Below, in pieces: positions 42,727-43,212 of a stretch of 64,000 nt of DNA. The notes under the pieces were generated by a model, which saw nothing but the letters and a program-made list of their open reading frames with translations, searched no databases and was not told the origin of the DNA. The position numbers and the translations under genes were made by a program. How positions within the stretch are numbered: the first letter of the stretch is position 1; each line of letters begins with the position of its first letter. The stretch lies in the NCBI RefSeq assembly GCF_022846255.1, contig NZ_AP025682.1. One strand, written 5' to 3'. Origin of the DNA: Escherichia coli. Lineage in GTDB: Bacteria; Pseudomonadota; Gammaproteobacteria; Enterobacterales; Enterobacteriaceae.

Positions 42727-42791
42727 CGGTAATCCCCTGCCTCGCCACCAACATTACCATGGAGTTTAATGCTGTAAATATGATTATTGAC

Positions 42792-42898
42792 GATCTTTTT
42801 AACCAAATAACAACAATTAAACAGGTTATAACACTACTCCAGTGCAAAAAATACAGCACTGAAATCCAGAAATCATATAAAATACAGATAAAAAGATC
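42792..42898. promoter_or_regulatory. pap-like Dam/Lrp phase-variation switch: two GATC sites ~103 bp apart
   Basis: CGATCTTTTT at ~42791 and its exact reverse complement AAAAAGATCG at ~42890, in the AT-rich divergent intergenic region between the PapB-like and PapI-like genes. Confidence 0.65.
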
Positions 42899-43212
42899 GT
42901 TTTTTGCATAATTTCTGATATTACATAACAACATGAAAATATCTTATTTTCTGGACATTAATCAAAAAATGATTCACATGATTTAATTAAATACATGAAA
43001 TTACAGGAGGGTAAAAATATTACCGGGGGAAACAAAAGCGGACAGAAAAATGACTGTGGAATTTTCTTCTTCCGGCAGAAAATAATCGTTGTATTATATA
43101 CGTCAGCTGCCAGCCCTGATGGCTTTACATGGCTGAAATTAACAACGACAAGAGTTCGTATGGTTTGATATACCATGCACGATATTCAGGTCCACACGGG
43201 AATTAACAGAAT

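Follow-up and report, generated by a model that had tools for sequence, protein, structure and literature searches.

A pap-type pair of inverted GATC boxes beside an IS-truncated afaF gene in an afa-8 adhesin locus of Escherichia coli

The subject of this analysis is the regulatory spacer of the afimbrial adhesin operon afa-8 in a 64,000-nucleotide stretch of Escherichia coli DNA (contig NZ_AP025682.1, assembly GCF_022846255.1), referred to here as the window. The spacer separates two divergent genes, afaA and afaF, which code for regulators of the PapB and PapI types, and it carries two GATC sites in inverted sequence contexts. A first-pass annotation, made from the letters alone, had proposed that this arrangement wires the operon for ON/OFF phase variation dependent on Dam and Lrp, like pap, sfa, daa and related operons. 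The observation itself is confirmed and the boxes in cis are homologous to those of pap, but the PapI-type co-regulator gene is truncated by an insertion sequence (IS), and the interpretation is supported in part.

The afaA-afaF spacer and its GATC boxes

The divergent spacer is 543 bp long (42670-43212), has a G+C content of 36%, and extends from the afaA start at 42669 to the afaF ATG at 43213. Its left edge had been set at 42727 on account of a longer, GTG-started open reading frame (ORF); the edge given here follows the afaA start of the reference afa-8 locus (L001), which is 99.7% identical to the window and was the source of both this start and the gene names. On the left, afaA (42325-42669, minus strand) codes for an intact PapB-type regulator of 114 amino acids, matching the Pfam family PapB (PF03333, E 1.9e-36) and identical to its L001 counterpart in all 114 of 114 positions. 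On the right, afaF (43213-43347, plus strand) belongs to the PapI/FaeA type. Both flanking genes are therefore of the types that had been recognized in the first pass, although the right-hand one is not intact, being cut by the IS. The PapB-type regulator heads a chaperone-usher operon that diverges from the PapI-type gene, as is the case in switches of the pap family.

GATC is found in the spacer twice, as the first-pass annotation stated, at positions 42792 and 42895, and no further GATC occurs across 42360-43785. Both sites lie inside a perfect 12-nucleotide inverted repeat, ACGATCTTTTTA / TAAAAAGATCGT, which bears out the proposed inverted motif context. The promoter-proximal box ACGATCTTTTTA (42790-42801, with GATC at 42792-42795) is the counterpart of GATC-prox and Lrp site 2 of pap, while the distal box TAAAAAGATCGT (42889-42900, with GATC at 42895-42898) is the counterpart of GATC-dist and Lrp site 5. 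Measured from start to start, the two GATC sites are 103 bp apart, in agreement with the expected spacing of about 102-103 bp and with the 102-103 bp found in the family. From the proximal box to the afaA ATG the distance is 123 bp, where papB in the pap reference locus (L008) has 106 bp; the distal box precedes the afaF ATG by 318 bp, and its pap counterpart the papI start by 197 bp.

The presence of exactly two GATC sites carries no weight by itself, because composition predicts 1.7 such sites in a spacer of 543 bp and the observed number is close to this expectation. The signal lies in the sequence context and in the spacing. A single instance of the pattern ACGATCTTTT-N88-98-AAAAGATCGT is found across the window, and 100 dinucleotide-preserving shuffles gave no instance at all. 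In the literature, two conserved, inverted GATC boxes some 102 bp apart define the pap family of Dam/Lrp/PapI epigenetic switches (PMC2909390).

Inspecting the conserved columns by eye, we delimited a candidate afaA promoter on the minus strand (42751-42778), comprised of a -35 element TTTACA (42778-42773), a 16-nucleotide spacer, and a TGn motif followed by the -10 element TAATGT (42756-42751). A conserved GGAGTTT motif (42761-42767), which is similar to site 3, is located inside the spacer of this candidate promoter. In the alignment described below, TGTAAAT is common to the window, pap and sfa, with the TTT being invariant.

Comparison with other regulatory regions of the pap family

A blastn search ('distant') was run with the spacer against 5,426 E. 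coli genomes. Matches to daaF, afaF and faeA were limited to the coding part (about 76% DNA identity for daaF/afaF). Since the spacer is too diverged for blastn, homology with pap was shown by anchoring annotated loci on their GATC boxes, in an alignment of eight sequences. Boxes are located at 1641 and 1743 in pap (L008, E. coli SK1144), at 1613 and 1715 in sfa (L009, with one additional GATC), at 1307 and 1409 in afa-3/dra (L005), and at 1657 and 1759 in a fae-like locus (L007), all four with a spacing of 102 bp. A spacing of 103 bp is found in a daa-type locus (L003; 649 and 752) and in K88 fae (L010, pUMNK88_K88; 1087 and 1190). An additional GATC box lies 31 bp away in the fae-like locus as well as in K88 fae.

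In all compared loci the ACGATCTTT box is turned towards the PapB-type gene and the AAAGATCG box towards the PapI-type gene. The alignment with the papI-papB region, which had been suggested as a check, shows that the boxes of the window correspond to those of pap and of the other compared loci column for column, in the same orientation and at 102-103 bp. Invariant in all eight sequences are ACGATCT in the proximal box and AAAAGATCG in the distal one, together with a TTT located 32 bp from the proximal box towards the promoter and, in the opposite direction, G or AG columns at distances of about 32 and 64 bp from this box. Counted from the G of the proximal GATC, these columns fall at -27 to -25 (TTT), +32 (G) and +63/+64 (AG), that is, in steps of about 32 bp. 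As far as an alignment can tell, this recurrence fits the three-helical-turn spacing of Lrp sites in pap, a spacing reportedly described by Nou et al. in 1995. The boxes are thus homologues, by position, of those in characterised members, the proximal one lying beside the promoter of the PapB-type gene, and the cis element is very probably a true switch module of the pap family.

Similarity to pap includes the divergent PapI-type and PapB-type genes, the two inverted boxes (ACGATCTTTT / AAAAGATCGT) at a distance of about 102 bp, a gap of about 106-123 bp between the proximal box and the start of the PapB-type gene downstream, and the TTT 32 bp on the promoter side of this box accompanied by the -35-like TGTAAAT element. 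The two differ in spacing (102 bp in pap, 103 bp in the window), in the adhesin, which is of the afimbrial Afa type in afa-8, and in the co-regulator: PapI has 77 amino acids and intact AfaF 62, with about 50% identity between them, and AfaF of the window is cut to 43 residues. The pap reference copy itself contains frameshifted papB and papA genes beside an IS1 (L008 446-1535, SK1144), while its regulatory spacer and papI are intact.

The daa (F1845) and afa-3/dra loci have the same arrangement of genes as afa-8 (afaF / afaA-B-C-D-E) and carry the same boxes with a spacing of 102-103 bp, and AfaF of afa-8 is 66-68% identical to DaaF and to AfaF of afa-3. Their spacers are longer (800-920 bp, in contrast to 543 bp in the window) and their adhesin is a Dr-family AfaE instead of AfaE-VIII/BmaE. 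Phase variation of the Afa/Dr family by Dam and Lrp has been described, and the afa regulatory region is known as a hotspot of IS insertion (PMC8764528); daa is counted among the Dam/Lrp phase-variable relatives (PMC9820224; PMC8764528). In ST131 the insertions are in the spacer, whereas in the window the IS resides in the afaF coding sequence. In fae (K88), the box pair is likewise found at 102-103 bp between the PapB-type faeB and the PapI-type faeA, but a third GATC box is placed 31 bp on the promoter side of the proximal box, and the distal box reads GATCGC and not GATCGT. Like the window, the K88 plasmid pUMNK88_K88 has an IS-disrupted regulatory region, with an IS1 between the GATC boxes and a remnant of faeA (L010 984-2093).

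A control scan for a relaxed form of the box pair was run over 298 Gb of species-representative genomes, where about 39 matches are expected at uniform composition. It returned 58 matches, one of them beside a PapB-like gene, in Edwardsiella hoshinae. With 58 matches against about 39 expected, the motif pair alone was rejected as a detector and as independent support; it is diagnostic only together with the gene context.

In Edwardsiella hoshinae NBRC 105699 (L025 12044-12534), the same inverted box pair adjoins a PapB-like gene whose product is 50% identical to AfaA, which suggests a pap-type switch in Edwardsiella. A PapI-like gene was not detected there, within the 626 bp that were available on the far side of the boxes.

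Truncation of afaF by an IS3-family element

In the window, afaF encodes 43 native residues and a methionine, followed by a stop codon (translation MKDNILTFLTELKTPCRTTEIAIHFGLSAYQARYYLMTLEKEGM-stop). The intact orthologue, present in CE0007a and 27 other genomes, continues with ...EKEGKIKRSPVRRGASTLWEMNS and has 62 amino acids. Accordingly, the intact protein covers all 62 of 62 positions of the Pfam domain FaeA (PF04703), and the fragment of the window 43 of 62 (positions 1-43). AfaF is homologous to the solved structure of PapI, 2HTJ (E 1.5e-11). For the intact protein, AlphaFold gives a model (pLDDT 87.6) with helices at residues 2-12, 18-25 and 29-41, and strands at 45-47 and 57-60. Projected on this model, the truncated form keeps the three helices, including the one with the conserved YQARYYL, and loses both wing strands; the last 19 of the 62 residues, with the whole beta-hairpin wing, are removed. 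Six of the 18 family-invariant residues are lost with them (R47, P49, R51, G53, T56 and W58). An intact PapI-type co-regulator, which belongs to a switch of the pap family, is therefore missing beside these boxes, afaF being cut to 43 of 62 residues. It is rather probable that the truncated gene is non-functional and the switch impaired.

The gene is cut by a 1258 bp IS3-family element similar to IS1397 (43343-44600, minus strand), bounded by 26-nucleotide terminal inverted repeats and 98.9-100% identical to annotated elements of the IS3/IS1397 family. Its transposase ORFs are located at 44217-44564 and 43351-44118, both on the minus strand. The 3-bp flanks of the element are GAA and GTA, showing no target duplication, the DNA to its right is not afaF, and the missing 3' part of afaF was found nowhere in the window. 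From these three features we infer that a rearrangement associated with the IS removed the end of the gene. The junction between afaF and the IS was found in no complete RefSeq E. coli genome, and no complete RefSeq genome matches 80% or more of the island portion that follows the IS on the right. No other paralogue of PapI or PapB is present within the window.

The segment to the right of the element (44601-46372) is a patchwork of mobile-element pieces. It includes fragmented IS110-like transposase ORFs (44714-45256) and an ORF of 343 amino acids (45341-46372, minus strand) whose product we take, from its sequence, to be an IS630-type transposase. The right flank of afaF is thoroughly rearranged. 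Within the IS3-family element, a match to the Rfam family isrC (135 bits; 44410-44532, minus strand) overlaps the 5' part of the first transposase ORF, and it probably reflects IS sequence in this Rfam family rather than a separate gene for a small RNA.

Variation among afa-8 loci

The afa-8 block of the window is 98-99.7% identical in DNA sequence to loci in 33 of the 5,426 complete E. coli genomes. Most afa-8 loci have their boxes 102 bp apart, SCU-308 has them at 100 bp and 32F4 at 104 bp, while 103 bp occurs in the window alone and in none of the 33 complete genomes. The variation comes mostly from the length of A-runs (L011 733-840; L012 733-836). In the window, the difference between 103 and 102 bp stems from an A6 run between the boxes (42846-42851), which is A5 in CE0007a and most relatives and A8 in 32F4. 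No complete RefSeq genome matches the window at 100% over 42760-42930, and it is possible that the A6 run, and with it the spacing of 103 bp, is a homopolymer sequencing error.

In 28 of the 33 genomes with the afa-8 regulatory region afaF is of full length, and three genomes with this region gave no afaF match. In ARS-C301, MS 85-1 and 20KM2222 the gene is cut by IS2 at nucleotide 157, after codon 52; in the latter two it is also split by ISEc12 near codon 8. These junctions indicate that afaF has been struck repeatedly and independently by IS elements in other strains (L002 3938-6705; L013 1152-1400).

Operon and island context

By its gene content and sequence similarity, the locus is identified as the already described afa-8 operon on a pathogenicity island at tRNA-Phe. 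Such an island with afa-8 has been described for strain AL862 (PMC3326304; PMC7545054), and GenBank GQ497943 holds the afa-8 operon of PAI I-AL862 (PMC3326304). Genes of the matching loci are annotated in RefSeq as an AfaD-family invasin and the M-agglutinin-type afimbrial adhesin BmaE/AfaE-8. The afa-8 operon of islands of the PAI I-AL862 type is reportedly the subject of studies by Lalioui and Le Bouguenec from 1999 and 2001. Gene content and order are the same in the window and in loci of this type; the window copy differs by the insertion of the IS3-family element into afaF, the 3' end of which is gone, and, in comparison with other afa-8 loci, by the A6 run in place of A5.

Gene order follows the afa-8 pattern, from tRNA-Phe through a P4-type integrase, afaE-VIII, the small RNA AfaR, afaD, the usher and chaperone genes, and afaA, to the spacer and afaF. 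The structural genes under the switch occupy 37219-42247 on the minus strand and carry the RefSeq names of the reference locus: chaperone (41480-42247), usher (38724-41312), afaD (38289-38708) and afaE-VIII, also called bmaE (37219-37731), which codes for the adhesin of 170 amino acids. All four are open, and neither they nor afaA have internal stops, identity to the reference proteins ranging from 162 of 170 to 139 of 139 residues. The spacer between afaD and afaE contains AfaR on the strand opposite to the operon (37974-38230, plus strand; Rfam RF02515, 270.5 bits against a gathering score of 100). The island border is formed by tRNA-Phe (35386-35458, plus strand), found as an Rfam tRNA match, and the ORF of the P4-type integrase (35596-36924, plus strand), in the same layout as in the reference locus; the island block sits downstream of dsbD and yjdC.

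Further along the island, two intact genes (47028-49435, plus strand) code for a major-facilitator-type transporter and an oxidoreductase, a pair that presumably resembles yjhB/yjhC of E. coli K-12. A gene for a two-partner-secretion transporter of the ShlB/FhaC/CdiB type is apparently split into at least three ORFs (51180-52997, minus strand), and a small ORF beside it (50666-50986) is possibly immunity-like. The region 51180-52997 is likely the remnant of a system of contact-dependent inhibition or of a hemagglutinin system.

Discussion

The mechanism of the pap switch has been described (PMC11316696; PMC9820224). By analogy with pap, in the OFF state Lrp would occupy the promoter-proximal sites, including GATC 42792, shielding this site from Dam and blocking the afaA promoter, and GATC 42895 would be methylated. 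In the ON state, Lrp together with AfaF would bind the distal sites, including GATC 42895; methylation of the proximal GATC by Dam would then keep Lrp off the promoter and allow transcription of afaABCDE. AfaA, being of the PapB type, would be expected to exert feedback on afaF. Since the host is E. coli, Dam and Lrp are taken to be present.

With a truncated AfaF, the relocation of Lrp to the distal sites should fail. The Dam/Lrp wiring proposed in the first pass thus holds as far as the cis boxes are concerned, but with a defective co-regulator, switching between ON and OFF "like pap" cannot be taken for granted in this strain. We consider it likely that the switch is intact in cis with its own co-regulator broken, and that it would be biased towards OFF or locked in this state unless a PapI paralogue elsewhere substitutes. 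In pap, mutants in papI are reportedly locked OFF and ACGATC is said to be needed for PapI-dependent binding of Lrp, according to Nou (1995) and Hernday (2003). AfaF is likewise said to act on clp, according to Martin (1996), Crost (2003) and Graveline (2014).

Several points weigh against the reading of an OFF-biased or OFF-locked pap-type switch. Over the spacer DNA, the blastn search matched only afa-8-type loci and none of pap, daa or afa-3 among the genomes searched. No promoter reached the scanner thresholds in a sigma-70 consensus scan of 42600-43300, and in 42670-43212 no site matches the CRP consensus TGTGA-N6-TCACA in eight or more of ten positions. The CRP match in pap is 9/10, placed where expected, 56 bp beyond GATC-dist, and those in sfa and afa-3 are 8/10; a CRP site upstream of the distal sites is a pap feature, not necessarily one of the whole family. 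In addition, the spacing ranges from 100 to 104 bp among afa-8 relatives, and the window has 103 and not 102 bp. In the literature, no paper was found that tests afa-8 itself for phase variation. PefI has been described as a repressor, so that proteins of the PapI type differ in their action (PMC12388093). Because of these differences within the family, locking in the OFF state after loss of afaF is an analogy and not a result. Finally, the afa-8 strains CE0007a and CE0021a also carry plasmid-borne genes of the PapI family, and a complementing paralogue may exist beyond the 64-kb window.

The last point leads to the alternative that survives best, namely that a PapI-family paralogue elsewhere, in another fimbrial operon or as an orphan on a plasmid, supplies the co-regulator in trans and the switch works normally. 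According to van der Woude and Low (1994), PapI, SfaC and DaaF reportedly cross-complement one another, and the ACGATC core common to the family is preserved in both boxes. An orphan FaeA/PapI gene on pCE0021a, with a product 66% identical to AfaF, and a PapI-family match on the CE0007a plasmid illustrate possible sources. On the other hand, the window contains no PapI or PapB paralogue; such a gene elsewhere in this strain is pure supposition, and we regard complementation in trans as rather unlikely.

It is still less likely that the boxes are conserved in a locus which is not truly phase variable, with Lrp and the PapI-type protein acting as a graded or repressing regulator. Loss of afaF would in this case relieve repression or leave expression unchanged. 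The repressor role of PefI and the different regulation of fae and fan (PMC12388093) are in accord with such a system, as is the lack of a CRP site at the level of 8/10 or better in the spacer. Yet the closest characterised relatives, daa and the Afa/Dr operons, are reported to be phase variable through Dam and Lrp (PMC8764528; PMC9820224), and the box pair, its orientation and its position beside the promoter match pap and not a layout with an added GATC like that of fae.

We give little credence to the view that the 44-residue AfaF fragment, consisting of three helices without a wing, is still active and the switch unaffected. The three helices, with the YQARYYL helix among them, are kept, and both the promoter and the start of afaF are untouched, but the fragment has lost both wing strands and the six invariant residues (RSPxRRGxxTxW), and of the 62 positions of the Pfam domain it retains just 1-43. 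Without their wing, small proteins of the winged-helix type seldom fold or bind.

Two GATC sites in 543 bp are what composition predicts and 57 of the 58 matches in the control scan have no PapB or PapI gene nearby, but a chance origin of the sites and their context in AT-rich intergenic DNA is hardly credible and was rejected, since the pair is expected about 1e-5 times in a 64-kb window, lies exactly between a PapB-type and a PapI-type gene, aligns with the boxes of six other family loci in the eight-sequence alignment, and is absent from all 100 shuffles.

A broader proposal, which we hold to be unlikely at present, about as much as a non-switching locus, is that the afa-8 switch is tuned or locked by genetic changes that keep arising in natural populations, through the lengths of the A-run and of nearby A/T-runs between the boxes and independent IS insertions in afaF. 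Spacings of 100, 102, 103 and 104 bp would shift the proximal and distal Lrp sites in their helical phase, and hence change the frequency of the ON state, and insertions in afaF (an IS3-family element here, IS2 and ISEc12 elsewhere) would turn a reversible switch into a fixed state. If this were true, the natural alleles of afa-8 would form a series in which one could study how switching rates are set by spacing and by loss of the co-regulator.

The literature already covers the afa-8 operon with its regulators of the PapB and PapI types, as well as the control of Afa/Dr operons by Dam and Lrp, and no new biology is added here. A reading of the sequence alone can recognise the signature of a pap-family methylation switch. 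What deserves to be recorded for this strain is the truncation of afaF by an IS, through which the switch has probably lost its own ON step. The repeated damage done to afaF by IS elements, together with the variable spacing of the boxes, could be of interest to students of switching rates. With the structural genes intact and the co-regulator broken, carriage of the afa-8 genes may not mean that the adhesin is expressed.
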